Source of the DNA: Leucoraja ocellata
Lineage: Eukaryota
Assembly: GCA_036785375.1 (NCBI GenBank)
Contig: JAWMAR010000030.1
Span: forward strand, 1,984,001-2,048,000
Direction of reading: 5' to 3'
Length of the DNA: 64,000 nucleotides
Both the position numbers and the translations under genes were made by a program. Positions 3,031 to 63,369 of the stretch are shown one piece after another (positions within the stretch are counted from its first letter, which is position 1; every line of letters starts with the position of its first letter). The notes under the pieces are model-generated. The model saw nothing but the letters and a program-made list of their open reading frames with translations. It did no database searches and had not been told where the DNA came from.

Positions 3031-3788
3031 CAGAGGGCAGTCAACAGATGGGACTAATGGAGCAGAGGATGATTTGTAAAGATGAAGCAGGATTGAGAAG
3101 TGGTAAAGTTAGAACAAGGTTTCACAGCTAAAGTAACCAGAAAATAAGAGCAGGAAGTAATTTGAGAGGAGCTGGAAAACAAGGACTGGCATTTACACAG
3201 CTCCCTGTTGTGTTTTTCAGTGTCACTGTGATACTAGTAGTAAAAAGGAAACAATTTGGTACATCAAGATCCAAGATGACCAATATGATTATACATCATC
3301 ACACAGAATATACAGCCACCAGTACGTACTGTCATTTGTATTCTTCTAAAGCGTCCTCTTAACATTCCTTATCTAACTCCATCGACCATTCTTCCTAATC
3401 CTATCCTCCCTAATATCCTGCTGTACCTTCCCCTCAAACATATATCTATACTATTTCAACCTCGCTACTGTTAGTAGTCCCACATTTAAACCACTCTCTG
3501 CTTAAAGATCTGCCACCTGAATTATTTTTATTTCTTTGAAGAATGTCTTGCACTGATGCCCTCTGGTTTTGCTCTTGCCAAGAAGTGAAATAACATTCTA
3601 TGTTTGCATTCTATACAAATCTATTGTGATTTTAAAATGAATGATAAGTATTTTTAATGTTTGTTACTATTAGCTAATAAGATTGTGCGGGCCTTTTGGT
3701 GGGGATATAAACTATTCTTTATTGAATGGTTGCTCATTTGAGGTTGTACATTTTGTAATTAAATTGTAATTTTGTAGTTTTAATTTGC

Positions 3789-4107
3789 TTTAGAGATACA
3801 GAGCGGAAACAGGCCTGTCGGCCAACCAAGTCCGCACTGACCAGCGATCCCTGTACATTAACACTATCCTTCACACAATTCCTTTTTATCCTAGGGATGA
3901 TTTATCTTTTATACCAAGCCAATTAACCTACAAACCTGTATGTCTTTGGAGTGTGGGAGGAAACTGAAGTTCTCGGAGAAAAGCAACGTGGTCACGGGGA
4001 GAATGTACAAACTCCGTACAGACAGCAGTAGTCAGGATCGAACCCACGTTTCTGGCACTGAAAGTGCTGTCAGGCAGCAACTCAACTGCTGTGTCACCGT
4101 GCCACCC
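3789..4107 (-). mobile_element. HE1-type SINE, near full length
   Basis: Reverse complement has the tRNA-like head GGGTGGCACGGTGACACAGCAG..GGGTTCGATCC, the V-domain and the CR1-like tail. Confidence 0.9.
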
Positions 4108-5620: not shown

Positions 5621-5896
5621 AGTGAAGCTTATTATCAAAAATTACAGTAGGCTCATGATCTGCTGGGCAAGTGGGCTGAGCAACGACTGATGCAGAAAAA
5701 CACGAGGTATTACTTTTTGAGAAGTCAAACTAGGGCAGGACCTTCACCGTTCATGGTAGGACCCTTGGGGATATTGTAGAGCAGATGGGTCTAGGAATGT
5801 GGGTACATCGTTTCCTGCAAGTGGTATCACAGGTTGATAGGGTGGTGCAAAAGGCTTTTGGTACATTGGCCTTCATCAGTCAGGATATTGAGTTTA

Positions 5897-6085
5897 GAAG
5901 GTAGACAAAAGTGCTGGAGAAACTCAGCAGGTGCAGCAGTATCTATGGAGCGAAGGAAATAGGCAACGTTTCGTCCCGAAACGTTGCCTATTTCCTTCGC
6001 ACCATAGATGCTGCTGCACCCGCTGAGTTTCTCCAGCACTTTTGTCTACCTTCGATATTCCGACATCTGCAGTTCCTTCTTAAAC
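5897..6085. mobile_element. Palindromic Penelope-terminal-repeat-derived element
   Basis: Inverted arms 5897-5973 and 5977-6053; flanking duplication ATATTGAGTTTAGAAG (5885-5900) vs ATAATGAATTTAGAAG (6086-6101). Confidence 0.85.
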
Positions 6086-6358: not shown

Positions 6359-6468
6359 ATAGAAACATAGAAAATAGGTGCAGGAGTAGGCCATTCGGCC
6401 CTTCGAGCCTGCACCATCATTCAATATGATCATGGCTGATCATCCAACTCAGTATCCTGTACCTGCCT
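6359..6468 (-). mobile_element. Young CR1 3' terminal fragment nested in an older CR1
   Basis: ATAGAAACATAGAAAATAGGTGCAGGAGTAGGCCATTCGGCCCTTCGAGCC is the reverse complement of the tail at about 49985-50094. Confidence 0.85.
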
Positions 6469-7711: not shown

Positions 7712-8002
7712 GGCGGCATGGTGGCATGGTAATAGAATTGCTGCCTTACAGCGCCAGAGATTTGGGTTTGATCCCGACTACGTCTGTACGGAGTTTGTCC
7801 GTTTTCCCCGTGATCGCCTGGGTTTTCCCCGGGTGCTCCGGTTTCCTCCCACACTCCAAAGGTGTACAGGTTTGTAGATTAATTGGCTTCAGTAAAAATT
7901 GTAAATTGTCCCTAGTGTGTAGGACAGTGTGGTATCGCTAGTCGTTGCAGACTTAGTGGGCCGAAGCCCTGTTTCCGTGCTGTATCTCTAAACTAAACTA
8001 AA
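7712..8002 (+). mobile_element. HE1-type SINE, full length
   Basis: GGCGGCATGGTGG head, V-domain GGGTTTTCCCCGGGTGCTCCGGTTTCCTCCCACACTCCAAA, (CTAAA)n tail. Confidence 0.92.
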
Positions 8003-11655: not shown

Positions 11656-12577
11656 ATTGCACTGGCAGAGTTTGGACTGTTATTTCAAGGCTGGAATTAC
11701 AGGTGACCAGCACGGAGACTCGATATAAAACTTTGCCTTGTCAAGTCTGAGTAGGAAAGTAAGGCAATTCACAGCATTTCATCCCTTATCAAGTTGATGA
11801 GAAGAATACTCGGTAAAATCAACAAACTCTACTCCAAAATGACCAACAATAACACTGTCTACAAATTGCTTGTAAAAACCCACAGCTGTCTTATTCCATA
11901 TATGAGGTGTCACTTCCCAGCTTCGCAGTGAGGGATCAATTTTGTAGGCAACCAATTCCAAAAATCCTGCACCTCCTGACTGGCAAGCACTCGAAGAACC
12001 ACCAGCGATTGGGTGGTTCGTCGAATCAGACTGGGGTCCTAAAGCAGGGAGCAGGGCTCCCTCCAGTGGCTCAAAGTATAACAGTCAAGTCGTAATGAGT
12101 TCGACAGGTCAGCAAAATGCACATTTCAATAACCACTGTTTAACATGAATGCAAATACTGCTGAGCTTTCTTTGTAAGATCTTGGCTCCCACCTCTGAAC
12201 TCACATTAAGATCAACTTTAGAGCATTAGGCCCTTTGGCTTCATGCCAGTTTTTGAAGGAGCTGACCAATTTACTCGCATACTGCATTCAACGTTTTGAT
12301 TTCATGGCATTTATTACAAGAGAAACTAAAAGATTCAGTACATATGCCAGTAAATTGACTTAGTACCTCTGCTATTGCTATTTTACTCTGGTTATGAGTG
12401 CACACGCTGATCATTCTTTAATAACTCACCCACTGCCAGTTCTTATGGTCCTCATACCCACCATTTTAAACTCTCAGGGCATGTTGGATGACTGGACCAC
12501 TTCACCGACAATACCCACTTCCCTTTGATGAGACTGCTCAGACAGACAGATCAGGGCATACACAAAATTAGTATACT

Positions 12578-12682
12578 CTGGATGCTGAAATGTAGCAGAG
12601 AATGCCTGAAAAAGTAATCTGGCAGCTCACATGGAGAGAAGAACAGAGTTAATGTTTCAGGTCAGGGATCTTTCATCAGAAG
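12578..12682 (-). mobile_element. Old hammerhead-family element
   Basis: Minus strand reads TTCTGATGAAAGATCCCTGACCTGAAACATTAAC. Confidence 0.65.
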
Positions 12683-14397
12683 GTGATTGAACCTTGTTTC
12701 TTTAAAAACCTGAAAATTATAGGAAGGAAGTACAAAAGATAAGAGGTTCCTTTGCTGGGAAATCTTGGAAGAGATTGTGTGTTGAGTCTGAATTTCAGTG
12801 AGAAATACAGGAGAGTGGGAAAGTCAGCTTAAACCCTACATGACTAATGCATGCATAATGCAAAATGACTGAAATAAATGGAAACTTAAAATGTAGGTTA
12901 TTTTTGGAAGAAAAGCTTAACAGTGGCCATAGAGATAAATAAAGATCCCACAGATATTCAAATATAATCAGTAGATCCAGTATTGTAAGGGGAGTTAAGG
13001 ATCAGCAATGTGCACAGGGATGCACAATGAGTTTTTTTAATGTAAACATAGGCCTAGAATATTTTTGTCTTTTACCAATAATAACTGAGGAAATGACAGA
13101 GACCAACTTTAAAACATTGGTTTAATGCACATTGCCATTAAAGAAACATTGGTTACAATATATCTTTAATGTTAACCAAACATTTTACTTTAAGAATGCA
13201 GCTTTCCAATGAGCCATTGATTACAAATGTGTAACCTATATACTGTGACTGGGCATCTTGAGTGTAAAAAAACCCAAGTAGTAAAAATATAGACAACAAC
13301 AGACCTGATATGTGCAGGAATAATTTATTATTAATACCAATTTAGTTGGCATTAATAACACAAATTTGATATATTTGACCAAAAATTAAAACTAAATCAA
13401 AAATACCTGATTTTACCCATTAATTGAAATGGTTCAAAAGGAAGGAAAGACATACTTGAACTAAACCGAAGAATTCAAAATCCCTGTATGTTCTATCTGT
13501 CTCATCTATAATCTTTGCTAAGAACAGGAGACTGGGAAACATGTCGTTTGTTATGCTTAGTTTCCGCTTATCAAGGCCCTGACTGGAAATGGATTTTTCC
13601 ACCTCTGATCTCCCACCCAAGTCATTAACTTAATACGCTGGCCCTTCCTTTCCATCAATCCCCCTGCAAGGATCTATGAGTAGAGGAGAGCAAGCTGTGT
13701 AGATTACAGAAAGATAATGCGCCCTTTGGGAAAGCAGACTGCAGTAGCACCGTTAAATTTACAAGCATTTCAGCAGTTGCAATTAACACTTACTATGCAC
13801 TCCAATTCACTCATTATTTGCTGCATTCATCCTCATTACAGCGTACGGTAATAATGTTAGGGAAATGAACTTTCCTGTGCCATTTTGTGAGCAAGAGGCG
13901 ACGTCAGGTACCTTTCGCTTTGTACAGGACAGTTCAGATGAAGGTCAAAGCTTGTATTAGATTTATTTCCTATTTAAGGGAATATAAAGGATCCCCACCC
14001 AATGCTTTCAAATATGACTTCATAATGTCCAAAGTCTACTAAATATGTTAAACATCAAGCAGATTTAAAGAACATTTGAAGCACGGGGTGAGTAATGAAT
14101 TAATGGTGATGATTAGGTTTATTGATGGTTGACTGTATCTCCTGCAAGGGCATGCTATTGCCAGTGTCAATGATTATCTTATCTCATCAGCCCAACAAGG
14201 CTACGCTAGCTGTCTGAGCAGTCCCATCAATCCTATTCCCCTTCCCTTATTTCCCGTACTTACTCTTATGTGCCAATAACCCAATAACCCCCACCCCCCC
14301 CCCCCAAGTATTCACACCAGGGGATGCAATAATCCAACCAGACAGCAAATATTTGGAATGTGGGAAGAAACACGAGAAACTGAGAAACTTCAACGAT

Positions 14398-26958: not shown

Positions 26959-27810
26959 CATTCGTCAAGCACAATTCTCCAGATCCCGTTTTGGCATAGA
27001 TGTTTATACACAAATGTGTCCGGCCACAGAACGCAGCAGTCGTTGATTTGATTTGGATGTATGCTGCCCTGGGCTAAACATTCAGTCTGACACAGATCAG
27101 ATTACCAAGCTAAACAGAGCCGGTATCTGCTTGCAGTCTAATTTTATTTGATAGATCTTTTTGTCATTAGGATTTGTCAGGCCAGAGATAACCCAAGCTA
27201 AGCAAAGGACAGTGCTCTGTGGCTACAAGCGACGTGTTCAGACTGAGGATATGGGCACGGTGGAGCCATTCTTAAAGAGGCAGACCTCGTTGTGGTAACA
27301 CCATGCCCACTGTCGGTTTAAGGGAACAGCAAATACAAATCAGCAGTTTGCTTTTAGCATGGTGAGTTAAAGTAACAAAATCAGAAGCTTATCTGATGAC
27401 AAGAAGCAACTCTTCACATAATGTGTTTGGGGCTTCTCATTCTATAGGCTGTTGCAGTTGGGATGTCCAATAGAGCATTTCAAAATTGTAATTGAAACAT
27501 TTTTAAGGGCATAATTAGACAATTCCCCCAGTGAAGCCACTGCACCCTACGTTTTAGTTATCATTATCAGGAGAGATATCCCAGACAGTTTTATATGCTC
27601 TGGATACAACGTAAGCAAAGGACTTGAAAGCAGAATGACGGAATGAGTACGGAAGGTTTCACTCTGTCTATCGACTCTATGCCAGGTTTATGAAGTAGCA
27701 ATCCAGCTTGACTCACTCTCCCGCCCACTTACCGAGGTCAATTAATTATTTATTTTCATATAACTAATCAAGAGCAGGTTTCATTAAAGTTTGGGTGAAT
27801 TCATTTCTAA

Positions 27811-27990
27811 CTCAGCGAGAGAGGCAGCATCTATGGAGAGAAGGAATAGGCGACGTTTCGGGTCGAGACCCTTCTTCAGACTGAATGTCCGACCTGGAAT
27901 GTCGCCTATTCCTTCTCTCCGTAGATGCTGCTCACCTGCTGAGTTCCTCCCGCATTTTTGTCTATCTTCGATTTTTCCAGCATCTTTCTT
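27811..27990. mobile_element. Palindromic hammerhead-family element with 12-bp flanking duplication
   Basis: Inverted arms around 27885; ATTTCTAACTCA at 27803-27814 and 27995-28006. Confidence 0.85.
27848..27884 (-). ncRNA. Minimal hammerhead ribozyme motif (intact core)
   Basis: Minus strand TCAGT-CTGAAGA-A-GGGT CTCG ACCC-GAAA-CGTC-GCC: CUGANGA, stem II, GAAA and a GUC triplet. Confidence 0.68.
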
Positions 27991-29791
27991 AATAATTTCT
28001 AACTCATATAAATACAGTATTTCTTACCATAAGAAGTATTGTATTGCAGTCTCTTAGGAATTAGCATTCATTTTTATATGGGAATTCCCATTCCCCATAC
28101 ATGAGGTATATCGTTTCCACAAATTAAGAAAATTCCTTCAATTTTTACATTCAGCTTTTTATCTCCAACTGGACTCATAACCATGAGCAAGAGTGTATTC
28201 ACATCATCATATGTGTAAAATCGACTAAAGACCTTCCATTTATCAGTTTATTCACTCATCACTGTTCCTACTCTCTCCCGCTGATATTTCATCCACTATC
28301 ATTGTGATAACCAATGCTAAGCATTTACTATATCCTCTATTATTGTCATTTAAGGTGTCATATTCGTTGAATTTTATCAGGCTTGTCACTTCTCGCTATG
28401 CTGCTCACTTTACAATGTATATACAGGTACCTCTTTATCCTTCCCATTTTTGCTCTGTGCATCTTGAATTGCTGCTGCTATTTTTGCTTTTTACATTGAT
28501 GTATAATTGTCCCACCAATGTCATGGGTCTTGATAATATTAATGCTGAAGTTTTGCATTTGTATTTGGGAGATTTAAAATCCATCAATTACTTTCTTACA
28601 AATTCCGAGTGCCGCCCACAGTTTGGGCAGCCAGTGAATTCTCTCATAGAGTTCCAGTCCAATCCTTCCTTACCTCTTCAATTCATTTTGTTATAGCCTG
28701 ACCCCTGATTTGTGACCCTCCTGCTTCCTCTTCAAACCCAATATTGATATTCAATCATGTTACATACCAGACTGCCTGCTATTTTCTGTCATTACTCATG
28801 TAAAATTAAGATCATCTGCTGCCTTGTTGGCTCGTGCTCCTTCAGGAAAGCAATCAGTAAATTTGACCATTTCCGACTGCTACCACTGTTTCTTCCCCAA
28901 AATGCATTTAAAACTCCCATTATCATTTTCCCTGATGGTTCTCTCTTTTCTTCATATCATATTCATATGACAAACCATTCCTGTCCTCTCATGCTATTTT
29001 AAAGGTGTTATAATTAATGGCACTGTGGGGTTGCAGTGTGTTTAACAATTCAACTTGCTCCAGATCAACCTCTTTCTATTTGAGGAACAGTAGAAGTATT
29101 TGTGCCTGAAGCGTATTTCACCTTCCTTACAGTTCAAACTTAAAGCAATCACAAGGTCAAGCACTGACAAATATGATGATTAAGTACGTGGGTCACAGGG
29201 CAGCTCTCCTATTTACAAAACCTTCTCTTTCTCAATCACCATACTCTTTTTTTGGACAGCTGTACCACCAACACCACAGATTTTTTCAATCAATAATCTC
29301 TGATCAATATATGATCACCATCTTATTCATTAATATTTTAAGCAGTATTTTTGTGTGTAAGAAAATCAATGCACTAGTGAATTGACAACTTTTGTATCTG
29401 CTTAGAGGGAATTCCAGGGTCTCATGGTGATGGAACACAGCCACACTTAGGGGGAGTGTAGTCCAAGATTCAGGGACTAGAGGACAAGCGGCAAGGGTTC
29501 CTCTCCCGGTGCATTCATTCATCTTTCTATTTAAAGATTTAAGGGAACTGGCTACTTTACCTATGTCACATTGGTAGGCATTGTTCATTCATTTTTTACT
29601 TAGTTTATTACTATTTGAACAGTAAATCCAATGGAGAAAGCTTTCAGGCAATCCAGTTAGAGAATAGCAAAAGGAGGAATTAAACTATTGGAAAAACACA
29701 ATGAGACTATAAAGGAGAAGCAATGAGGAAGATGAGAACTGATTGATTGATTAACATGGCCAGAGACCTGACATCCAAAGAAATGTTATTA

Positions 29792-29893
29792 TCAGTCTGA
29801 AGAAGGGTCTTGACCCGAAACGTCACCCATTCTTTGTCTCCAGAGATGTTGCCTGTCCCACTGAGTTACTCCAGCATTTTGTGTCTACCTTCA
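29792..29893 (+). mobile_element. Hammerhead-family element
   Basis: TCAGTCTGAAGAAGGGTCTTGACCCGAAACGTCACC..CTGAGTTACTCCAGCATTTTGTGTCTACCTTC. Confidence 0.88.
29793..29828 (+). ncRNA. Minimal hammerhead ribozyme motif (intact core)
   Basis: CTGAAGA 29797-29803, extra A, stem II GGGT/ACCC within 29805-29816, GAAA 29817-29820, CGTC; predicted cleavage after 29824. Confidence 0.7.
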
Positions 29894-32800
29894 GTGATAT
29901 TAGAAAGATTGATTAGGGAGTAGAGCCAAATCCTACAGCAAAGAAACAGAGATCCCATTTTTGTTTAATCTTAAGAAAATGGGATGGATAATTAATTTCA
30001 AAAATAGATACAAATTCTGCCAATTTAGACTTGTGATTTGAAGAGCATTGGTCATTTCTTGACTAGTAATTAGTATCAGTCAACTGCACTGGCTTGGCTG
30101 TGTGTCGCTGGATGGGATCCAGGGGCCTAAATCAGTGGTAGACTGCAAGCATTGAATGATATTACTATATTGTGCTTTCCTTGATTTAGTTGTAAACTGG
30201 GCAAAATGAGGCCAACCACAATGACTAAAAACATACTTAGGTAAATTACACTGAGATCTTCCATGCACTAGTGTACTGTGATTTTTTTTTAAATGTCCTC
30301 GTAAACAATGTGGACAGCAGGCAGGAGTAGGTGAAGGAGAGCCAGCACTTTGATAACCTAAAGACCCTGACTCTGCCTAGGCTGAAACAGCAACTCTCCT
30401 CATCCCTGCGATTTGCTTTAAGATAAGAATTCAAGTTCTTTACTGCTGGTAGATTTCAACCAGCATGCTATTAGAGTGCTCCCCGCTGAGTACATAATGT
30501 CTCAATATCCACTGAAGCCCACTAATCCCCATGAGTAATTTGCTATATGGAGACAAATCTCACCCCAAGAACCCCCTCTCATTGAAGTGACAGTCCCAGA
30601 TACAAAATGGTGCTCGTGTGACTTTGCTTCTAACACAAACATAATGCATGATTTTATTTTGTTTTAAACATAATTCTAATTGCTAATGCTCACAATGCAT
30701 TGTAGCACATGCTTGAATATTGCTTCCCCTGTTAACTGGACAGAAACTGCCTCAGATCTACCATCTCTGCACCATCTCCAAATAATATGCTTTAATGCCG
30801 AGAACAACTTCTCAACCCTGTGCATGCTACTTTTCCACACAACATTCAGTACAATAAGAATGCCATAGTGGAGTCAAAAGTAAAATACTTTCTACTCTTC
30901 ATTATGTGATGTTAATTACTTGCTCATAAGAAGTCCAAACAGCTGGAATGGTTCTGCACTTACAATGCTGATGCTGTGAGCCGGTGACCTGAGGAGTTGC
31001 TGCACAGACCTCTGAAAGCACTTCATCCTGAAATAAACACAACAACTGTAAGAATTATTCTTTTACATGCTCAGGATCACATTTTTTTTAAATGCGGCTA
31101 GTTGTTTCCATGAGTTTGTGGATACGCGCAGAGAATTTTAAAAAGTCATTAAAAATCAGATAAGATCCCAAAAGGCAAAATCAGATGAAGTTGAGTGAAG
31201 AAGAGATACAAAGAGCATGGGGTGGTGGAATGTGTTTATCTGGTGAGCAAGGGGCAGTAAGATTTGTACATGTGTGTGAAAAAAAGTATTCCTGTGTGGA
31301 GTTACATATATAATCCATGATTGTTCACGAGTTGGTGTCACAAGAATGCAGGAGTGATTCTCTGGTGGGAATATACATTATGGGTGTGTGTGCTAATGAC
31401 AGCTTTGTGAGCAGTGAAACTGTGAATGAGACTCAGTGGCAGGATGCAGAATACTGATGGAACAGATTTATTGGAGAAATGCAAAATCACCAATGCATAA
31501 TTTTACAGGTTAGATGGAATGCTCTTGACACCTAAGTAATTGAAGTGCATTTTTGCCAATAAATTTAATGGCCCCATCAAAATAAACAATTAAAAGATTT
31601 AGGAAAATGAAAGGCAAGGTCATTAAATCACCCAGCTAAGTGAATGCTGTATAATCAAGTGGGTTGCAAAATTATACACTATATTGGTTGTTCTAAATGC
31701 TGAACACAAAAACAACACTAGAATTGAAACAAAGCAAGGCTTTTCAGAACATTTTGTGGCACATGACCTTTGACAAGTAAATTCTTTATAATTTGGCAGT
31801 GATTAAAGGAGTACATTTAAACATCAGTCATCATATTGTTATTTTTGGGTTAAAGTAAACTACAAGTGCATTACTTTATGAAAATACTGAATGTTACTTA
31901 TGTGGCTTTTTGACCTGACGCAAGCAAGCTAATGCCAAGCAGTGCAAGGTTCTCTCTTAAAACCTATCAGGACTGCATCATGCACATGCCATCCTCCAGA
32001 TAGCCATTGGCAGGTTCCCTGAGGGAGTCCTTTCAACTATCAGTACCAAATATATTTAGTATTCTGACAAAGTGGATTGTCCTAATGCATTATCATATAC
32101 ATTTTCCACTGTTTAAATTGCAGATATCCGCAGTGCAGTCAATCATAGGGATTGTTCTGTAATATAAGAAAGGACTACCTATCACAAAGAGTAGTGGAAG
32201 GATAGAAGCTGACATGCCCGTGCACCTTAATATTTTGACATGCAGGCATTGTATGTTAACCTTCAACTTCTATGACCAATCTGGGGAAAAGGATTCTCAT
32301 ACTGGCTTAAACCTCTCGTTAAAACAAACACTCTGAATACCAGGCTGAGATGTATTTTAAACCCCACATGCCCACCTTTTGGCTGGATCACAAGGTGAAA
32401 AAATATTAGTTCTGCATGCACAAATGGGAAAAGTTCAGCTAAGTCTCTGCTTGCTCACTGTGTGGTTGAGACAGCCATAAGCTGGTTGAAATCTACTCTT
32501 GTGATTTTGTGATGTGATCAGAGTCATGGGCATATTCTTGCAATTGATACCCTCTTTGCAAACTCAACAAATCCTTCAACTGATTTTATGAAATATTTAG
32601 ATGGTAGAATGATATAATTGAACTGTACGTCATTTATTAATGAATGTTGGGGGAGTGGGGACAACACGAGCGGATATCATCATACTTGCTTTGCATTCAT
32701 TCACATTTCAGGACTTGGATGTCACTGTGAAAGCCAGAATTTATTTCACCATCCCGAGCTGCCTTTGAGAAGGGGGTGGGTAAGACTTCTTCCTGAACCA

Positions 32801-35562: not shown

Positions 35563-35785
35563 TAAAACTGCAGATGCTGGAAATCCCAAATAAAAAAAAA
35601 TATTCATAAATGTCGGATAGAATCTAGATAGAGAGGAACAGAGCTCAGGCCAATGTACTTTCATCAAATCTTCATGGCTTATTCTGATAAAAGGTCATTG
35701 ACCTAAAATATATTAACTACAATTCTCTCTCCACTGCATTTGCTTAACCTGTGAGTATTCAGTGCTAATTCTGTTTGCATTCCTG
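35563..35785. mobile_element. Old palindromic hammerhead-family element
   Basis: Left arm AAAACTGCAGATGCTGGAAATC..CTTTCATCA; right arm TTCTGATAAAAGGTCATTGACCTAAAA.. Confidence 0.65.
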
Positions 35786-35989
35786 ATAGGTCATACTTGG
35801 TCATAGGCAGAAGAAAGATATCAAACAATCTTATTCCCATTGTACAAGACATTAAGTAAATATCTTCTCCTTACTCAAGCTAAGTTATACCTAACCACAG
35901 TTTGTTGGTGATTCTCATCCCTTTGGCTCAACTCATCTATGATGACCAAGTTGCATAACTGAGTTAGTATTACTTGCGTGAACCTGGTT

Positions 35990-36900: not shown

Positions 36901-37313
36901 TATTTTGACGGTCTGTACCTTGTGGAAGCTGGCCCCCGTTCTACCTGCTGCTGTACATTAAAGGAAGGGAAGGTGAAGTCTACAATATTGCAGGAGAAAA
37001 TATCAATGACCTTCCTACTGCATCAATCATCAGCAATCTGACATATATGACATCATTGGCTGGAATACTGCTGATGCTTGGAGGTTGAGAAATACAGTGA
37101 GCTGGACATATGGATGTCCATGAAGTACCCCTTTTATCTACAGAAGACATTTACAAGTAGAATATGTTTTTGGGCCACAGGGTTGTTGTTAAACCTGGTT
37201 GCTGTATGAGTGATTATGAGCCAAAATGTCATGTGGACAAATTTAATGCATCTTTCTGTTCCCTGTGAAACTATTAACCGTTCTAATGAAAGGTCCCTGA
37301 ATTGAAACAATAA

Positions 37314-37465
37314 TGCCCCTGTCCCACTTAGGAAACCTGAACGAAAACTTCTGGAGACTTTGTGCCCCACCCAAGGTTTCTGTGCAATTCCCGGAGGTTC
37401 CCAAAGGTTTTTGTCAGTCTCCCTACCTGCTTCCACTACCTGCAACCTCCGGCAACCACCTGAAA
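37314..37465. mobile_element. Truncated MITE (related terminus) nested in an old hammerhead-family element (37280-37560)
   Basis: TAA then TGCCCCTGTCCCACTTAGG; host reads TTCTAATGAAAGGTCCCTGAATTGAAACA before and TCTTTCCATAGATGCTGCCTGACCTGCTGA after. Confidence 0.7.
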
Positions 37466-38356: not shown

Positions 38357-39327
38357 CTTTTAAAATCTAAACATACTATATCTCCTTTGCAACCAAACAA
38401 AATGCGTCAAATGCTCTATGCATTTCTCTTCTTTTAAGACTGGTTTTACAACCACAATGACAGTGCATGATTGTTACTGAATTGATTTACTTTCCATTGA
38501 AGGCATGTAATAGACCCCAACACGCGATCAGGGAGTTGTAACTCGCAGCTCATCAGCCAGCCGACACTGTTTATTGATCAGAAAACAGATTGTGTTCATG
38601 ATATTGCAATGAGATATTTTAATTACTGTTGTACATTGCACCCCGACCTCCAGTCCATTAGTACAGAATTAACCTCCATGCGTGACTCTGAAGCAGTGGA
38701 AACCTTGACTAGTCTGCCTTGTAAAAGTACCACTGTCATCAATACCAAAAATCAATAGTCAATAGTTGTAGATTCTCACATTCAAAATGCTTCCAATTTT
38801 GCTTAACAAAGACCTCTTAAGCAAATTTCACAAATGCCAATAACTCATCATTGGCTTTGTTTGTACACCAATATCCAGTAGTAATATTCATGACATTTGA
38901 GGCTGCAAGATCGTGTAGAGAACTATAATTACTGTTGTAACACCCATTAAATTCAATTAAGTTCAAACCAGATAGATTATGCGATTGGGAAAGAGACTGA
39001 AAGTTCATTTTACCTGATCGAAATGAGCGGATCAATTTCATCATGGGCATCGTAGTTGTTATGGAGCTGCTTGTTCGGGAACAGGAGAACTTCATACAGC
39101 AACAATTATGCCCAATGTAAACCAGCACCTGCAGTTCTTTGTCTATACTCATTGCATCCTGTATTAGCATTTAGGATGTTAGTGGTATAGGCAAGTTCAA
39201 GGCCACATGTCATTATCTTAAACCAATCTGTCAGTGAAGAGCCTAACTTAGCAATGTATTTTTACAATTTAATGGGTTGAAAAGTTATATTAGTGACATT
39301 TTATCATATTATTACAAAATATATTAA

Positions 39328-39416
39328 AAGGGTTTCAACCCGAAACGTTGCCTATTTCCTTCGATCCATAGATGCTGCCTCACACGCTGAGTTTCTCCAG
39401 CATTTTTGTCTACCTT
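39328..39416 (+). mobile_element. Hammerhead-family element, 5'-truncated within the core
   Basis: AAGGGTTTCAACCCGAAACGTTGCCTATTTCCTTCG..TTTTGTCTACCTT. Confidence 0.85.
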
Positions 39417-39749
39417 AAAAGAATTCCTGTTACTTTTTATTCCAAGATTCCTTATTTTTTGACATAAAATATTAATAATCGAGTAGTTGAATAACGTGTG
39501 TAAAAGAAAAACAAGGACTATAGTTCTAAAATAATCCGATTTGTTTATTTTGGTAAGGAAATTCATAGTTGATAAATTTGATTTAAATCTTTATGTTGGT
39601 ACAATGAGGATCAATGGGGTAGAACGTTTGATGTGGTCTACATGACTTCAGCAAGGCTTTTTACAAAACCATGCTTGCAAAACTCTACACAACGTGGACT
39701 GACAAATGTGGACCAATATTGGTTCTGTGACAGGAAGTAGAGAATGATA

Positions 39750-41985: not shown

Positions 41986-42066
41986 ATAGACAATAGACAG
42001 TAGGTGCAGGAGTAGGTCATTCGGCCCTTCGAGCCAGCACTGCCATTCAATGTGATCATGGTGATC
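41986..42066 (-). mobile_element. Young CR1 3' terminal fragment
   Basis: ATAGACAATAGACAGTAGGTGCAGGAGTAGGTCATTCGGCCCTTCGAGCC. Confidence 0.82.
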
Positions 42067-42693: not shown

Positions 42694-42988
42694 TAGTTTA
42701 GAGATACAGTGCGGAAACAGGCCCTTCGTCCTACCGAGTCTGCACCGACCAGCGATCACCCCGCACACTAGCACTATCCCAAACACTAGAGGCAATTTAC
42801 AATTTTTACCAAAGCTAAGTAACCTACAAACCTGTACGTCTTTGGAATGTGGGAGGAAACCGGAACACCTAGAGAAAACCCACGCGGTCACAGGGAGAAT
42901 GTACAAACTCCATTCAGACAGCACCCATAGTCAGGATCGAACCCGGGTCTCTGGCGCTGTAAGGCAGCAACTCTACCACAGTGTCGCC
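42694..42988 (-). mobile_element. HE1-type SINE, near full length
   Basis: Reverse complement of the consensus seen at 7712-8002. Confidence 0.92.
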
Positions 42989-44129: not shown

Positions 44130-46372
44130 TTGTCACTTGGCACATCAATCATGGTTATAGACTTAAAAAAGAAACTGCTGGAGGAACTGAGTTGGTCATG
44201 TCAATCTGACCTGCTAAATTCATGCAGCAGTTAATTTTTTACTCAAGCTTACAGCATTGCAGTATGTTTTGTATCCATGGTAACAGCCATATTTGGTCTA
44301 TCAACAATCGGGATAATGTATAAACAGAGAGCAAACCTTAACAACCCTAATTTTGGATGTCTGGGTTCACTGTTCTCAGAAGCTTCTAGACAATCCACAT
44401 GAATTACTTTGTCCCACAAAGATGTATGAACATTCAGAAGTGTATTGTCAGTTATAATGTGGTACCAATGTAAATGTTATCCAATGGAACCATTTGTCTG
44501 ACTCAAACTCTCGAAGTAGAGAATGCCATTACTGTTATCAAAACGTATTGAATGAAGGAATGAATACTTTATTGTCACATGTGACAAGTCACTGTAAAAT
44601 CTTTGTTTTGCATACCCAGGGTATGCAAAGAGTCACCATATAAAGGGCACCAACAAAGTTACTCAAGAGTTTCAAAACTTGATGTGGTTTGAATTCAGAG
44701 AGATCCCACTGACAGTGTCTCCGACAGAATGTCTGCTCGTAATACCTTTTGTATCCACGAGCTTCAGCCTCTGAGTGGCTTGGTTCGATTAAATCATGCA
44801 ATGTCATCATATTTTCCTTCACTGAAGCTAAATGCCACAGGAAGTAAAGGAGCAAACAGATATAAACAAATTTGGACAAAGTTCAGATTTCCATTAATTC
44901 TTACTTTGATAATCCGAGAAGAATAGTGAGCCTCTATTTACAAAAATATGTTAGTGACAGGAAGAACTTAAAAGGAAAAAAGGCCTTATGTTGCAGTTTC
45001 TCAGATGACTTAGCAAATCTTCACCGTCCAAGACTGAACTGATATTTGCTTTTAAAGTCCATTATTTCCATTAGTCCCTGAGGTAACTTAATGCATCTTA
45101 AAAATGAACACGGAGTGGGGGGTAGGGGGCTCCACGTTATGAAGTACGCAAAACTATTGAAATCGGAAACACTGACTAAGTGATCCGAGCAAGTGCACTG
45201 TTTATTGCTGATTAAGTGGAAGGGTGACAGTGATGGATGGCAACCATTTTCCGCAGTTTGACAAAATAGACCACCTCACCATGGTTCAATCCATGGCTTT
45301 GCAACCAATACCCAAATCTCAAAATATGAAATGGATTGCTGAACATATAGAGAGTGCACAAACCAGTTTTGTCGTAAGGTCCTCGACCTGAAACGTTGTT
45401 TCACTCTCTATATTCATTGCATGATTTAGTGAGCATTTCTGGCATTCTTTTGTGCACTTTTGCATAACCTCAAGTTAAATTCCCCAGAATGTTAGGTTAT
45501 GAAGTGAATTTTTTCAAGACATTAAACCTTGGGGAGGGCAAATGGATCATATAAATGTGGTCGAGTAAAGAAAATATTTTTGCTGCTTGGCAAGTTGAGC
45601 CGTGGGGAGAATAATATAAAGATTAGTCAGGACTTGCGATTCAATTGGAACCATACAGAGGATGAAATTTCATATTCTGCAAATAGTAATTCGTGCTGGA
45701 CTACTTAATAATTTCAGATGTGAGATTGACAGATATTTGTATAATGTTAAGAAAAAATGGAGGCATCTGGAATTAAGTCGTAGATGAGTCCCCACTGTAA
45801 CATGCAGTGCAAGTTCAAGGGGTGTAATTGCATATACCCGTTCCAATGAACATATATGGTGTGTAGACTACAATTCAGACCGCAGACAGTCTATATTTAA
45901 AGCATTATCTCAAAATATTGGGGCATTTGTTAGTGTCTGTGGTATATCAGAAGAGGCAACAATGGGCCAGACTCAGAGGTTCAGCAGCTGCAGGTACATT
46001 ATTTACCATTGAGACATTAAAGAAAGCCTTTTGGCCCATTGTGGTCGAGGTGTTCAAAAACTTGTGCAGTATTGAGGGAGTACACAGCACCACAAGTATA
46101 AGCATCCTGTTGATTAACCAAGGCCACAAATGCCTGGCATCAATCAATATCCCATTAAGACCATGGATCTGTATTTATTACAGTGCAATGGAGTTATTTA
46201 AATAAAAGCTACTGACCATTGCTCAAAAGAAAGGACTTTGGAACATGGAACAGATTTTTCCAATTGATTCAATCAAACTAATTTAGACAAGGTCAGGCTG
46301 AAAATTTTTTTTTTTTTAAAAGGTGAGTGCATTAACTCTACTGATATCTATGATGACCAATAGATCTTAAGT

Positions 46373-47797: not shown

Positions 47798-47993
47798 GGA
47801 AGGAACTGCAGATGCTGGTTTAAACCGAAGATAGACACAAAATGCTGGACAGGCAGCATCTCTGGAGAGAAGGAATGGGTAAAGCTTCGGGTCGAGATCC
47901 TTCTTCAGACTCCATAGTCTGTCACTCACCCATTCCTTCTCTCCAGAGATGTTGCCTGTCCTGCTGAGTTACTCCAATATTTTGTGTCTATCT
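47798..47993. mobile_element. Palindromic hammerhead-family element
   Basis: Inverted arms joined at about 47910-47925; flanks CAGGTTGTCTTTATTTA / CAGGTTGTTTTTGTTCA. Confidence 0.85.
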
Positions 47994-48919
47994 CAGGTTG
48001 TTTTTGTTCATTATGCAAAGAAAGGTCATGCCTTAATTAAGGAAACACAATGAATTCAATTGGGTCATAAGCATTTAGAGCAAATGATTCTTGATGCACT
48101 CACACACTTACAAATTATGTTTATTCCCTGTTTACTTTATTTTCATCTCGATTAATCAATTTAATCGTGACACAAATGGACATACAAATGTGGCCCCTTA
48201 CAGTGTAATGCATTGCTGAATAGCCAACTTACAGACTGAGCTGGAAAATTTACCAGACAACTCAAAGTACCGCTGCTCAACTGAGCATATTTATGCCCCT
48301 ACACCATAGTTGTTTATTTCAACCTTACTTCCAAGTAATTATTGATCCCTAATTAGATTTCCAAATTCAACCCTAAAAGGACAGTTTTGTGCTTGGATCT
48401 AGCAATGGTATTCAGGCACTTTGCACTATTCCAGCAGATGCATGAATATTTTTGTGTCATTATTTACATTATGGTGAATCTGAAATGGAACAAATGGAGC
48501 AATTCTATTGTCATTGCAGAATAATCTTGTAATAAGGGATAGTTTCAAAATATATAGGGTATAGAAGCATAAATCGGAGTATTATCAGTGCAAAGTGATA
48601 GGAACCGTGACAATTTTGTACCAGAGAGGTCTGATCCTTATCTGTGTCCAGACCATCACTAATTTGATAGATGCCTTTTTAGTATGGTGCTTACTGTCAA
48701 CACTAACATCAATTTCAACATTTAATTGAGATTTATGTTTATTTCCAAACAAATTTCCTAAATTCACAAATATTTCCTAACTTTTAAGGCCCAATTAGTG
48801 TCAATATAATATGAAGATAATCAAAACAAACGGGGACAAAGCAATGAACCTAATTATATTTATATAATATTACAAGCCTTGCACACTTCCTGTGTGTTCT
48901 GCCACACTTCACTGAAGGT

Positions 48920-49495: not shown

Positions 49496-49615
49496 TGGTT
49501 CTGATGAAAAACCTGAACCTGGACCTGAAACATGAACTGTTTCTCCTTCCACAGATGTTGCTGAACTGCTGAGCTTTCCAGCATTTTCCATTTTTGTTTC
49601 AGATTTCTGCATCTA
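49496..49615 (+). mobile_element. Old hammerhead-family element
   Basis: GGTTCTGATGAAAA..GGACCTGAAACATGAACTGTTTCTCCTTCCACAGATG..TTCCAGCATTTT. Confidence 0.7.
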
Positions 49616-49794: not shown

Positions 49795-50312
49795 GAGCGG
49801 CATGGTGGTGCAGTGGTACAGATGCTGCCTTACAGCGCTTGCAGCGCCGGAGACCCGGGTTAGATCTAAGGGTGCTCTCTGGAATTCTCTGCCACAGAAG
49901 GTAGTTGAGGCCAGTTCATTGGCTATATTTAAGAGGGAGTTAGATGTGGCCCTTGTGGCTAAAGGTATCGGGGGTATGGAGAGAAGGCAGGTACAGGATA
50001 CTGAGTTGGATGATCAGCCATGATCATATTGAATGGCGGTGCAGGCTCGAAGGGCCGAATGCCCTACTCCTGCACCTATTTTCTATGTTTCTATGTACGG
50101 AGTTTGTATGTTCTCCCCGGGACCTGCGTGGGTTTTCTCTGAGATCTTTGGTTTCTTCCCACACTCCAAAGATGTCCGGGTATCTAGATTAATTGGCTTG
50201 GTTGATGTAAAAATTGTCCCTAGTGTGTGTAGGATAGAGTTAATATGTGGGGATCGCTGGTCAGTGCTGGACTTGAAGGGCCTGTTTCCACGCTGTATCT
50301 TTAAACTAAACT
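49795..50312 (+). mobile_element. HE1-type SINE containing a nested CR1 3' end (about 49881-50094)
   Basis: SINE head to GGGTGCTCTCT, then CR1 end (LWNSLPQKVVEASSLAIFKRELD..TTCTATGTTTCTATG), then the SINE resumes at TACGGAGTTTG. Confidence 0.9.
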
Positions 50313-52199
50313 ATTTTACTTCATGTAACTTTTGGCAGTATCATATATTCATCTGTCCCATGTTATTTGTATAATTCTTTTATTGTGGCATTTGCTCAAC
50401 CTTTAATAAATGTTATGAGTTCTAGGTTATACTGCTTTATAAGTTTTGACTAGATCTATCTACCCTGATGGCTTCAGGCCAACCTCAGGGGAGAGGTGTA
50501 TGAGACATTACCTCTGGCAGATGTGGCCTCTGGGCAGACATCCATGTATGAAGCAGATGTTGATTCATCTAAGGCAATCTATTCACTAATGCTACGTTAC
50601 AAAACATATCCAATATCATTGGTTCCTATCATGAAAAAGACAGACTTGAATGTGTATTGTATAATCTCATCCCACAAAAGCACCACAAAACAATTAACGT
50701 GGCAGACTATAATTTGGAACACTGCAAGATCCGAATGAAACCCATGAGTCTGACTGCTTCCAAATGCCACATAAAGTGCAATTCTACTCAAATAAATCTT
50801 ACCTGATAATGTTCTTCAAATATGACTTGAACAAATTAAAAGCATTGCATTTTAGCAGTATTTAGCAAGCAATTAAGAATATAATGAACCGTGGGAAGGG
50901 GGATAAAAGCACTAGATTTATTACGGTCTTTGCTATACAGATATACTGGTGAACATGAATAAGACCCTAGTCTAGAGAGGAACACCACGACACCTCTTGC
51001 ATTTTCCAATGAACCCGCCTGCCACAAGCTAAGCCATGACAGTAGGTCAAGGGGCATAGCCATGAATGTAGGGTAAACTTTGGAACAAGTTGCAATTTAA
51101 AACCGATTAATTCCACAGTGCTGTAATCAAAATGCAGATATTTGCATATATTGGAAATAATTGCAGAAAAAATAGTGTGACCAAAACATCGAATCATTCA
51201 AGAGCAAATTAAAGGATGACAATCTTTACATAAAAGGCTTTGTGTATAAGAGTGTATAAGAATTATAACACTATAATTTTCAATTTATCTATTACAATGG
51301 CTAGAGGAAAGACAGGTTGTTGATTAAAATATTTAGGAGTGAAAGAACTTGGTTGACATGCATGACTGTATATCCTATAGATTGAAAGCAGGTATTACAT
51401 TTTTCCACATAAAATAATTGATGCTGTTCTCAAGCACCTGCCCATTGCCAATTCAAGGAGAACAAAAAGTGTCTTGAGAGCTGATGAAGTCTTTCTGATC
51501 AAAGATAGACACAAAATGCTGGAGTAACTCAGCGGGACAGGCAGCGTAGATGATGACCAGAATTCCCACAGATTCCTGCTAAATTGCAAATTGTGTCGTA
51601 ATTACGTAAAGATGGTTTAATATCTCATCTGAAACGCAGCACCTCAGACAAGGCAGCACTCTCTTTGCCAAGATTATGTGAACAATTCTATAGATTGCAG
51701 CCCCAATTCAGCAATAACTTACTGAATAAGAGATGAGCTTTCAACTCAGCACACGCTGACCAAAGTCATGCTGCTTACAAAACAGGGATGTGAAGTACAG
51801 ACTTCAAAATATATATCAAATAAAAAGAAAATAGAATACCATTCCACAAATTCCTTCTTAAAGAGATTTGTTTGACCTACTTATTTATCCTTCTTCCTGT
51901 GTTTACAATATCAGTAGGAGAACAGTTTGACTTATTTTGAAAGACTTAGAGCTTGATTTAGTATTTGAGTGTCATAAAAATGTCATGCAATCATCCTACC
52001 ATTAAATACTTGTCACAGTGACAGATGCTTTAATACCCAACTTAACCTCGCCAGCCTTTGCTCATTTATTATTCAGCTTTTCAATATTTAAGCTGTGTCA
52101 GCTGTCACAAGTGCAAAAATGAACAATGTAACACACAAGGCTGGTTTCCGAGCCATCGATTCCACTCATAAAGCCCAAATGTGTTTCTATTCCCAATAA

Positions 52200-52832: not shown

Positions 52833-52996
52833 TTAGTTAATGAGAGAATGGTGTTAATTATAAAATGAAATTATAGCATGAAATTTCCAAGAACATTAAA
52901 TAGGCAAATGTGGTTAAAAGTTGCACACACACATTCTTGATTGTTCTTTCCATTGACATTTATGCTAGGTAAATAGAATTAGACAATAACTAAATA

Positions 52997-53214
52997 TAGA
53001 CACAAAATACTGGAGTAACTCAGCAGGACAGGCAGCATCTCTGGAGAGAAGGAATGGGTGACGTTTTGAGTCGAGACCTAAAGATCTGAAGAAGGGTCTC
53101 GACCCAAAATGTCACCCATTCATTCTCTCCAGATGCTGCCTGTCCCACTGAGTTACTCTAGCATATTGTGCCTACCTTTGGTGTAAACTGGCATCTGCAG
53201 CTCCTTCCTAGACA
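52997..53214. mobile_element. Palindromic hammerhead-family element
   Basis: Inverted arm 52997-53079, then CTGAAGAAGGGTCTCGACCCAAAATGTCACC..GCATCTGCAGCTCCTTCCTAGAC. Confidence 0.88.
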
Positions 53215-55449: not shown

Positions 55450-56125
55450 AGGATGGTAACTGGATTAGTAATCCAATGATCTGGGGACATAATTCCAATC
55501 CTACTGCAGGAGCTTTGCAGTTTGAATCCAGTTAATTTATTTAATACTGTATTAACAAGATGAAAACTAGAAAATACTGGACATACTCAGCAGGTCAGGC
55601 CACATCTGAGGAAAAGGAAATAGAGTTAATGTTTCAATACTAACAAAGTGTTTTCTATCCGAGATGTTAATTCGGATTCTCTTCCCACAAATAGGGCCTG
55701 ACCTGCTGACTATTTACATCAGTCTGAAGAAGGGTTTCGGCCCACAACGTTGCCTATTTCCATTGCTCCATAGATGCTGCTGCACCCGCTGAGCTTCTCC
55801 AGCACTTTTGTCTACCTTTGATTTTCCAGCATCTGCAGTTCCTTCCTAAACACTATTTCCAACATCTTCTGTTAAAAAGATGATATCAAGTATGGATACC
55901 CATGAAAACATAAGAATATCATAAAATCATATCTGGTTCATAAATGCACTTTACATCTACTATTGTAATTATCAGGTCATACTTGCATGACACTAAGCCT
56001 ATAGCAAAATATTGACTTTGAATACCTTTGAAATGACCTCACAAGTCACTCAATTATAAGAAAATTAGGGATGGACAAAAATGCTGGGCTTCAAAGTGAT
56101 ATCCAAATCTCACGAATGAATCAAC
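55450..56125 (+). mobile_element. Old tRNA-SINE containing an old hammerhead-family palindrome (about 55565-55875), which itself contains a young copy (55719-55851)
   Basis: SINE head CTGGATTAGTAATCCA..; young insert TCAGTCTGAAGAAGGGTTTCGGCCC..TTCCTTCCTAAAC is flanked by ACTATTT on both sides. Confidence 0.72.
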
Positions 56126-58750: not shown

Positions 58751-59036
58751 TTAGAGATACAGCATGAAAACAAGCCCTTCAGCCGGCTGAGTCCACACCA
58801 ACCAACAATCACTTGCATACACTATCCTACACACACTGGAGACAACTTACAGAAGCCAATTTACCTACAAACCAGCACGTCTTTGGAATATAGGAGAAAA
58901 CCAGAGCACCCGGAGAAAACTAATGTGTTCACAGGGAGACCGTACAAACTCCATACAGACAGCACCCGTATTCAGGATCTAACCCGGGTTTCCGGCACTG
59001 TAAGGCAGTAACTTTATCGCAGCGCCATTGTTCCGC
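58751..59036 (-). mobile_element. HE1-type SINE
   Basis: Reverse complement of the HE1 consensus including the tRNA-like head. Confidence 0.9.
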
Positions 59037-60547: not shown

Positions 60548-60664
60548 AATTAAGTGTAAAATTGTCCCTAGTGTGTGTAGGGTAGTGTTAATACGCGGAG
60601 ATCCCTGGTCGGTGCAGACTCGAAGGGCCTGTTTCTGCGCTCTATCTCTAAACTAAACTAAACT
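60548..60664 (+). mobile_element. HE1-type SINE 3' fragment
   Basis: AAATTGTCCCTAGTGTGTGTAGG..GAAGGGCCTGTTTCTGCGCTCTATCTCTAAACTAAACTAAACT. Confidence 0.88.
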
Positions 60665-63094: not shown

Positions 63095-63268
63095 AAGGAA
63101 CTGCAGATGCTGGTTTACACCGAAGAGAGACACAAAAGCTGGAGTAACACAGCGGCTCAGGCAGCATCTCTGGATAGAAGGAATGGGTGAGGTTTCAGGT
63201 TGAGACCCTTCTTCAGAGTCTCGACCCCAAACGTCATCCATTCCTTCCAAACAGAGATGCTGTCTGTC
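63095..63268. mobile_element. Palindromic hammerhead-family element
   Basis: Arms joined at about 63218; flanks TATTACAAAAGTCTAGT (63078-63094) / TATGACAAAAGTCTGGT (63269-63285). Confidence 0.85.
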
Positions 63269-63369
63269 TATGACAAAAGTCTGGTGGACTTATACTCGTG
63301 CTATTTCAGGCTGCAACTCAGTGCCACTCAGCTTCAAATTCTTATCACCTGTAAACGTGGATGCAGTTT

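Follow-up and report, generated by a model that had tools for sequence, protein, structure and literature searches.

Minimal hammerhead ribozymes (min-HHRs) of metazoan Penelope-like elements (PLEs) were defined by Cervera and De la Peña in 2014 (PMC4209133). In the sections of that paper available to us, the consensus has a fixed A9 and a variable extra base, covariation among consensus families within genomes is already noted, and Fig. S3 includes an A-U first pair of stem II (D. willistoni, Latimeria 2) as well as G·U first pairs. For PAc, the Poseidon element of Anolis carolinensis, the accessible passages report protein-assisted hammerhead cleavage, and in vitro insertion that is unaffected in hammerhead mutants (PMC11167929). 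Elsewhere, the function of the hammerhead in PLEs is called unclear (PMC8557442, excerpt). Animal non-LTR retrozymes carry type I hammerheads related to Penelope terminal repeats and, according to the available part of the preprint, occur in one chondrichthyan (bioRxiv 10.64898/2026.07.22.740005).

Here, we analysed hammerhead-like repeats of the skate Leucoraja ocellata, starting from a 64-kb stretch of its genome (the window). An earlier note on this DNA had proposed that compensatory base changes across three subfamilies kept the hammerhead fold through successive amplifications; our analysis mostly confirmed the observation, the phenomenon itself being already known. The skate motif shares with the min-HHR, as far as the consulted sections of PMC4209133 describe it, the CUGANGA box followed by one extra base, stem II, the GAAA box, the palindromic 15.2-16.2 positions, the absence of helix III, the location in a terminal repeat and the mostly dispersed single copies. 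It differs in having shorter stems, with 4-5 bp in stem II and 2-4 bp in stem I; helix I, which has 4-5 bp in the min-HHR, comprises 4 bp in the lineage here called O1 and 3 bp in O2, while A, B and C have no more than 2 contiguous bp. Copy number is far higher as well: exact matches exceed 62,000, compared to about 9,000 for Xenopus. Unlike the families in that paper, the skate lineages stay alignable, so that changes can be placed on a tree. With PAc the skate repeats have in common a hammerhead within the terminal repeat of an element with a reverse transcriptase (RT) and a GIY-YIG endonuclease, conserved between related species; in PAc, however, the ORF starts at stem II and cleavage has been shown with the protein (PMC11167929, passages available), whereas here the hammerhead is predicted from sequence. 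Non-LTR retrozymes are defined in the accessible preprint text as tandem arrays, while the copies in the 64-kb window are dispersed singles or inverted pairs, and tandem units typical of retrozymes are absent from it. Our literature search returned no publication describing these lineages from a cartilaginous fish, and the readable supplement of PMC4209133 contained none of the cartilaginous-fish terms searched; the supplements of the retrozyme preprint may list chondrichthyan families.

The hammerhead copy and its relatives in the window

The copy at 12647-12683 lies on the minus strand and retains a CUGAUGA box, an extra A, a 5-bp stem II with A-U as its first pair, GAAAC and the 3′ strand AACU. 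Its hammerhead positions are C3 at 12679, A10.1 at 12671, U11.1 at 12659, G12 at 12658 and N17 at 12651, with the 3′ strand of stem I at 12650-12647. Decay is visible as an A·C mismatch at 10.3-11.3, a G16.2-to-A change and a stem I reduced to 2 bp. This copy and those related to it in the window, assigned to the lineages described below, are as follows:

12575-12685, minus strand: old-type (O1b) Penelope terminal-repeat remnant, hammerhead and downstream block
12647-12683, minus strand: decayed minimal type I hammerhead, with coordinates taken from the sequence
35681-35790, plus strand: old-type (O1b) copy with decayed G8 and G12
37279-37340, plus strand: old-type (O1b) hammerhead fragment, downstream part gone, weak score
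37452-37553, plus strand: additional old-type (O1) copy without the 5′ part
45362-45468, plus strand: old-type (O1b) copy, CUGANGA box damaged
49497-49615, plus strand: old-type (O1) copy, stem II interrupted by a 5-nt insertion, GGTT before the core
55718-55844, plus strand: young B1 copy with a mutated GAAA box and U·G at 10.4-11.4
39326-39420, plus strand: young B2 copy (U-A at 10.4-11.4), 5′-truncated
5967-6078, plus strand: young B1 copy, 5′-truncated, right arm of the inverted pair 5890-6060
29791-29895, plus strand: young A1 copy, core intact
27808-27884, minus strand: young B3 copy (stem II of type A, downstream part of type B), core intact

The three copies from which the earlier note had pieced together its young type B indeed score best against B1 (55724 and 5977) and B2 (39328). 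Likewise, its five old-type copies all score best against O1b and have A at 10.1 and T at 11.1, with those at 35683 and 49501 being among the copies that built the O1b consensus.

Rfam covariance models returned no hammerhead family among their five matches in the window at E up to 1, which is expected for a minimal motif without helix III; the matches are to microRNA hairpins only, well under the gathering scores, and two of the loci lie on inverted repeat pairs. Tail-to-tail or head-to-head inverted pairs occur at 5890-6060, 47800-48000, 52985-53210, 27808-27990 and 63095-63270; such pairs are typical of Penelope-like insertions, and some of them yield the spurious microRNA-hairpin matches. 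A loose core pattern searched in the window alone gave 15 matches against 7.4 expected, a marginal excess. The window also holds a second dispersed family, SINE-like with (TAAAC)n-like tails (1749-2013, 3779-4032, 7782-8000, 42772-42981, 50126-50313, 58831-59022 and 60617-60660), and a third short repeat family with 88-97% identity among copies (6359-6468, 41993-42061 and 49985-50094).

Lineages, their ages and the parent element

Both young types, A and B, exist as the earlier note had spelled them out: their combined 27-nt pattern has 62,453 exact matches in the 3.44-Gb genome and none in the reversed control. So that the hammerhead itself would not bias the choice, copies were gathered with models of the downstream part only. 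Random stretches totalling 1.414 Mb yielded 682 matches, compared to 0 in the reversed control, and a later sample of 1.75 Mb yielded 882. Clustering on the downstream columns separated A1, A2, A3, B, C, O1 and O2, with a median non-CpG divergence of 8, 11, 12, 5, 14, 21 and 19%, respectively. The further division into B1-B3 and O1a/O1b relied on hammerhead letters and is therefore not independent of the motif. Altogether, there are about ten lineages, 5-21% decayed, with a common core.

Homology between old and young types extends beyond the hammerhead, as the old downstream-only model matches young copies in the window with E ~1e-6; the young-only downstream model recovers one of the five old copies named in the earlier note. 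O2 accounts for 23 of the 882 copies in the 1.75-Mb sample and is missing from the window. The idea of successive waves stands in so far as the amplifications can be ordered by age; the lineages themselves are parallel branches of an unrooted tree rather than a single line of descent.

The same 3′ end (A1, A2) is found with several unrelated upstream spacers (loci L079, L102, L132, L123 and L257), a combination suggestive of repeat ends having been swapped among elements. For many old copies, the same contig holds a second one with near-identical flanks (C26:1735848 and C26:1967869; C101:4452036 and C101:5034397), which suggests uncollapsed haplotypes or segmental duplications and inflates the pattern counts.

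Long reading frames with a GIY-YIG domain stop ~110-125 nt ahead of young copies. A protein search for parental ORFs scored 134 of 196,857 candidates, from which ten long ones were taken, and in nine of these ten the repeat lies directly behind the ORF, i.e. as a 3′ terminal repeat. Two scanned ORFs (763 and 682 aa) contain Pfam RVT_1 above the cut-off (E 4e-7 and 4e-8), and both match GIY-YIG with 19.3-19.7 bits, under the 22.6 cut-off (E about 1e-3). The order of RT followed by a GIY-YIG endonuclease in one ORF is that of EN+ PLEs, the GIY-YIG match being below the cut-off. Endonuclease remnants were also recognized upstream of one O1 copy (33% identity) and of one duplicated O2 locus (40-49% identity), and each lineage group (A, B, O1 and O2) thereby has an RT plus GIY-YIG ORF or a remnant ~110-300 nt before the motif. 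These ORFs and remnants identify the motif as the terminal-repeat hammerhead of Penelope-like elements. A clean 5′ terminal repeat was not found, and the 5′ copy examined, at locus L283, looked like a separate inverted insertion. At that locus, an inverted terminal-repeat pair with repeated 12-nt flanks (L283:2610-3150) lies in or beside the 5′ part of a long copy of the element itself, and a 27-nt tandem repeat of ~20 units (L283:3427-4010) is situated in the N-terminal coding region of the parent. By inspection, coding constraint downstream of the hammerhead has no support, as the reading frames differ among lineages.

Directly before stem I, all lineages have a pyrimidine tract and AG resembling a 3′ splice site (L283:6520-6564; L214-L267). 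In D. virilis Penelope, the 5′ side of helix I marks the end of an intron (PMC4209133, available section). RNA data from related organisms show a steep increase in the depth of reads and contigs at the stem I edge; two raw RNA runs from related organisms yielded no supported splice joint, and they contain no position with many read starts or ends, although this library type combined with a high-copy repeat cannot report on cleavage.

Changes in stem II, stem I and the core

The earlier note had the first pair of stem II changing from G-C to A-T. The A-T pair is real but restricted to about half of the old family, the rest having G·U: eight of the ten lineages carry G10.1-C11.1, O1a has G·U and O1b has A-U, and the states across lineages form a G-C / G·U / A-U series. 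In the unbiased sample of old copies, the pair is A-T in 15, G-T in nine and G-C in two of 35, with A in 18 and G in 16 of 38 copies at position 10.1. A hand tally of the 100 listed among 116 old-type matches, near-duplicate loci included, gave G 54, A 34, T 9 and C 3 at 10.1, and TG 74, CA 4 and CG 2 at 11.1-12. Since C11.1 and G12 make up a CpG, T at 11.1 could be plain decay. At true CpG sites, however, TG and CA appear in similar numbers (in O2, CA 18, TG 11 and CG 10 of 40), and the large excess of TG over CA at 11.1-12 therefore marks U11.1 as parental rather than as decay in the copies.

A10.1 is linked to U7, which is present in 17/17 such copies compared to 7/13 with G10.1 (p=0.003), and the linkage recurs in 62 matches (p=0.003). 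Moreover, the loop starts with A in 20 of 37 A10.1 copies compared to 3 of 63 others in a hand tally of the first 100 of 241 matches, the G rows of which are partly contaminated by young copies. Positions 7-8 of G10.1 copies read TG (7) or CA (6), as expected after decay of a parental C7-G8. We read this as two old sub-lineages, a putative O1a (C7, G·U) and a putative O1b (U7, A-U), and position 7, said to vary between A and T, accordingly also takes C. Taken as a whole, the downstream columns do not support the split (permutation p=0.47), two single columns reaching p=0.001 and 0.005 without correction, and other G sites of O1 are also high in G-to-A changes (38% at 10.3 vs 47% at 10.1). A suspected third old lineage with a G-C first pair and a 5-bp stem was dropped, as 11 of its 20 loci are clearly young, two are clearly O1 and the rest are unclassifiable; the association between 10.1 and 11.1 in that list was dropped with it. 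In A3 copies, G10.3 reads A in 22 of 93, with no linked sites, and A at this position in A3 (and in 38% of O1) may reflect either a mutation hotspot or a sub-lineage with a stem II mismatch.

In stem I of O1, AGUU is paired with AACU, with U-A in 21/32 and 21/29 copies. Of the pairing GGTT/AACT ascribed to the old type, the AACT strand holds, but its partner is AGTT in the consensus, with GGTT found in one of the five copies (49501). The innermost stem I pair of O2, 2.1-1.1, is C-G in five, C·A in three and U·G in one of nine. Compared to the young types, the old ones have an additional stem I pair beside the core, U-A in O1 and C-G in O2, which is the cleanest double change in the data set. 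Young stem I contains U·G in B and two wobble pairs in C.

The CUGANGA box, the GAAA box and U16.1-H17 are present in nine of the ten lineage consensuses, the extra base between A9 and 10.1 is A in all ten, and, once corrected for CpG decay, all carry the palindromic ACGU (15.2-16.2); a helix III is missing throughout. At the CpG of this palindrome, O1 copies read CA in 24, TG in 19 and CG in two of 59. CTGA-GA and GAAAC are therefore as fixed as the earlier note had them, except in O2, which has C at the normally fixed A9. With this position left free, 40 O2 matches have C in 33, T in five, G in two and A in none. At loci L244-L267, C at position 9 is followed by A, and the innermost stem I pair is C-G. 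In the hammerhead core, G12 and A9 form a sheared pair. O2 (CUGAUG-C-A) might be a natural register-shifted hammerhead, in which the A beside stem II would act as A9 and the bulge would fall between G8 and A9, a tentative and rather doubtful proposal. In the sections of PMC4209133 available to us, no row of Fig. S3 with C at position 9 was found, and natural core variants are listed in PMC3088659, of which the passages seen make no mention of position 9. The hammerhead of the Chrysanthemum chlorotic mottle viroid likewise has one extra A between A9 and G10.1, but it possesses a full helix III, and the variants tested there alter the extra base, whereas O2 alters the base before it (PMC3705267, accessible part). 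Should the register shift be true, the accepted numbering of the PLE minimal hammerhead would need revising; should O2 instead be inactive, a Penelope lineage would have been copied tens of thousands of times although lacking a functional ribozyme.

Probable selection on parents and decay of copies

On an unrooted tree of the ten CpG-corrected consensuses, the core has one change over 14 positions, namely the C at position 9 in O2, compared to 41 of 82 variable downstream columns (p=0.003). All 6-8 stem substitutions between lineages keep Watson-Crick or G·U pairing, for which the post hoc chance is roughly 0.0002-0.016, and at the CpGs at 15.2-16.2 and G12 the core-breaking side has never decayed in any lineage consensus. 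The adjacent 100-nt upstream spacer does not align between lineages (top z of 3.7 in 41 pairs vs 13.4 within B, from ten single copies), nor within A1 or within A2. These data support conservation of the fold in the parent lineages, as proposed, but formal covariation, the check set by the earlier note, is not significant. In 20 real copies, hand-picked as closest to their consensuses, 92% of cells pair, compared to 14-51% in slid registers; two of eight pairs change on both sides, a count reached by 332 of 500 shuffles, and the covariation score is reached by 20 of 500, a score that related sequences can attain without structure. Covariation among copies within a lineage was not detected either, and the differences between young A and B, taken earlier for compensatory, are one-sided wobbles. 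The hammerhead is absent from the predicted minimum-energy structures, and folding of the alignment recovers stem II but not stem I.

The genomic copies behave differently from their parents. The full motif is intact in 24 of 115 A1 and 36 of 80 B copies covering the core, and in none of the 26 O1, eight O2, 27 C or 75 A3 copies. Hammerhead features are lost from copies at about the background rate, i.e. by neutral decay. In six of the seven families, the non-CpG core of the copies is 3-8 points more conserved than composition-matched downstream sites, an excess that may be explained by the alignment step favouring copies with a good core; the conservation of stem II in the copies is not above expectation, and core CpGs decay freely.

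Considering these results together, we favour, with a probability of nearly four in five, the reading that the window and genome contain dispersed, decaying terminal-repeat fragments of some ten Penelope-like lineages, whose hammerhead fold was likely kept by selection acting on active parents, not on the copies. The parent transcript would fold into a hammerhead that processes the precursor RNA, probably cleaving either in dimers joined by the ACGU palindrome or assisted by the protein of the element, and for this reason only parents with a paired fold would have gone on amplifying. Loss of the CpG at C11.1 would have produced the G·U state, the likely intermediate between G-C and A-U. This reading is weakened by the non-significant covariation, the missing downstream support for the O1a/O1b split, the high G-to-A rates at other G sites of O1, the nearly equal conservation of the downstream block, the short stem I of the young lineages with its two wobble pairs in C, the amplification of O2 with C at position 9, the failure of the predicted folds to show the hammerhead and the Anolis mutants, in which in vitro insertion was unaffected.

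An unlikely alternative is that the terminal repeat owes the conservation of its entire 3′ end to a role as promoter, splice signal or protein-binding signal, with the hammerhead riding along and its cleavage weak or dispensable. The core is not uniquely conserved, since a 38-nt downstream block, with 9 of 38 columns variable, is nearly as invariant; the region 15-90 nt past the cleavage site (55760-55844 in the window, and in all copies) hardly differs between lineages and can form an outer helix AUGCUG/CAGCAU and an inner one GCUG/CAGC, without compensatory changes. This block may be a candidate binding site for the protein of the element. The same alternative gains from the pyrimidine tract and AG that precede stem I in every lineage, from the spread of O2 despite its C at position 9, and from reports that catalytic mutants still insert in vitro (PMC11167929) and that Naiad elements thrive without canonical hammerheads (PMC8557442), as given in the parts of these papers available. 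It is opposed by the way in which changes follow hammerhead rules, with N7 and N17 varying, stems pairing and core-side CpGs intact in the consensuses, and by the Anolis relative, which, in the accessible text, cleaves once the protein is added (PMC11167929).

We consider it hardly credible that the host keeps the copies as working ribozymes in its own transcripts. The conservation excess of the non-CpG core and the abundance of the repeat in RNA reads of related organisms would fit this notion, but good-core alignment bias can account for the former, stem II is not above expectation, core CpGs decay freely and no O1, O2, C or A3 copy covering the core retains the full motif. Very improbable, too, is an origin of the A-U pair as an artefact of a single old G10.1 parent, through CpG decay at 11.1 and a mutable G10.1. 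That 10.1 and 11.1 do not covary within O1, that global downstream linkage is absent (p=0.47), that nearby G-to-A rates are high and that apparent covariation in the 241-match list was traced to mutated young copies would all suit such an artefact. However, decay in the copies is excluded by the preponderance of TG over CA at 11.1-12, three partly overlapping samples link A10.1 with U7 and with the loop A, and all five old-type window copies of the earlier note have A at 10.1.

Of our results, just two were not found in print, as judged from the available sections of the cited literature, namely the O2 core variant and the G·U intermediate. In some ten lineages that differ in age and can still be aligned, the parents retained the fold through the turnover of the neighbouring spacer; this retention constitutes modest independent evidence of selection on the RNA. 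O2 broke the core rule and yet spread. Together, O2 and the G-C / G·U / A-U series provide a dated natural mutagenesis panel for the question of whether cleavage matters to Penelope transposition, and the skate genome is a useful test panel rather than a new system.
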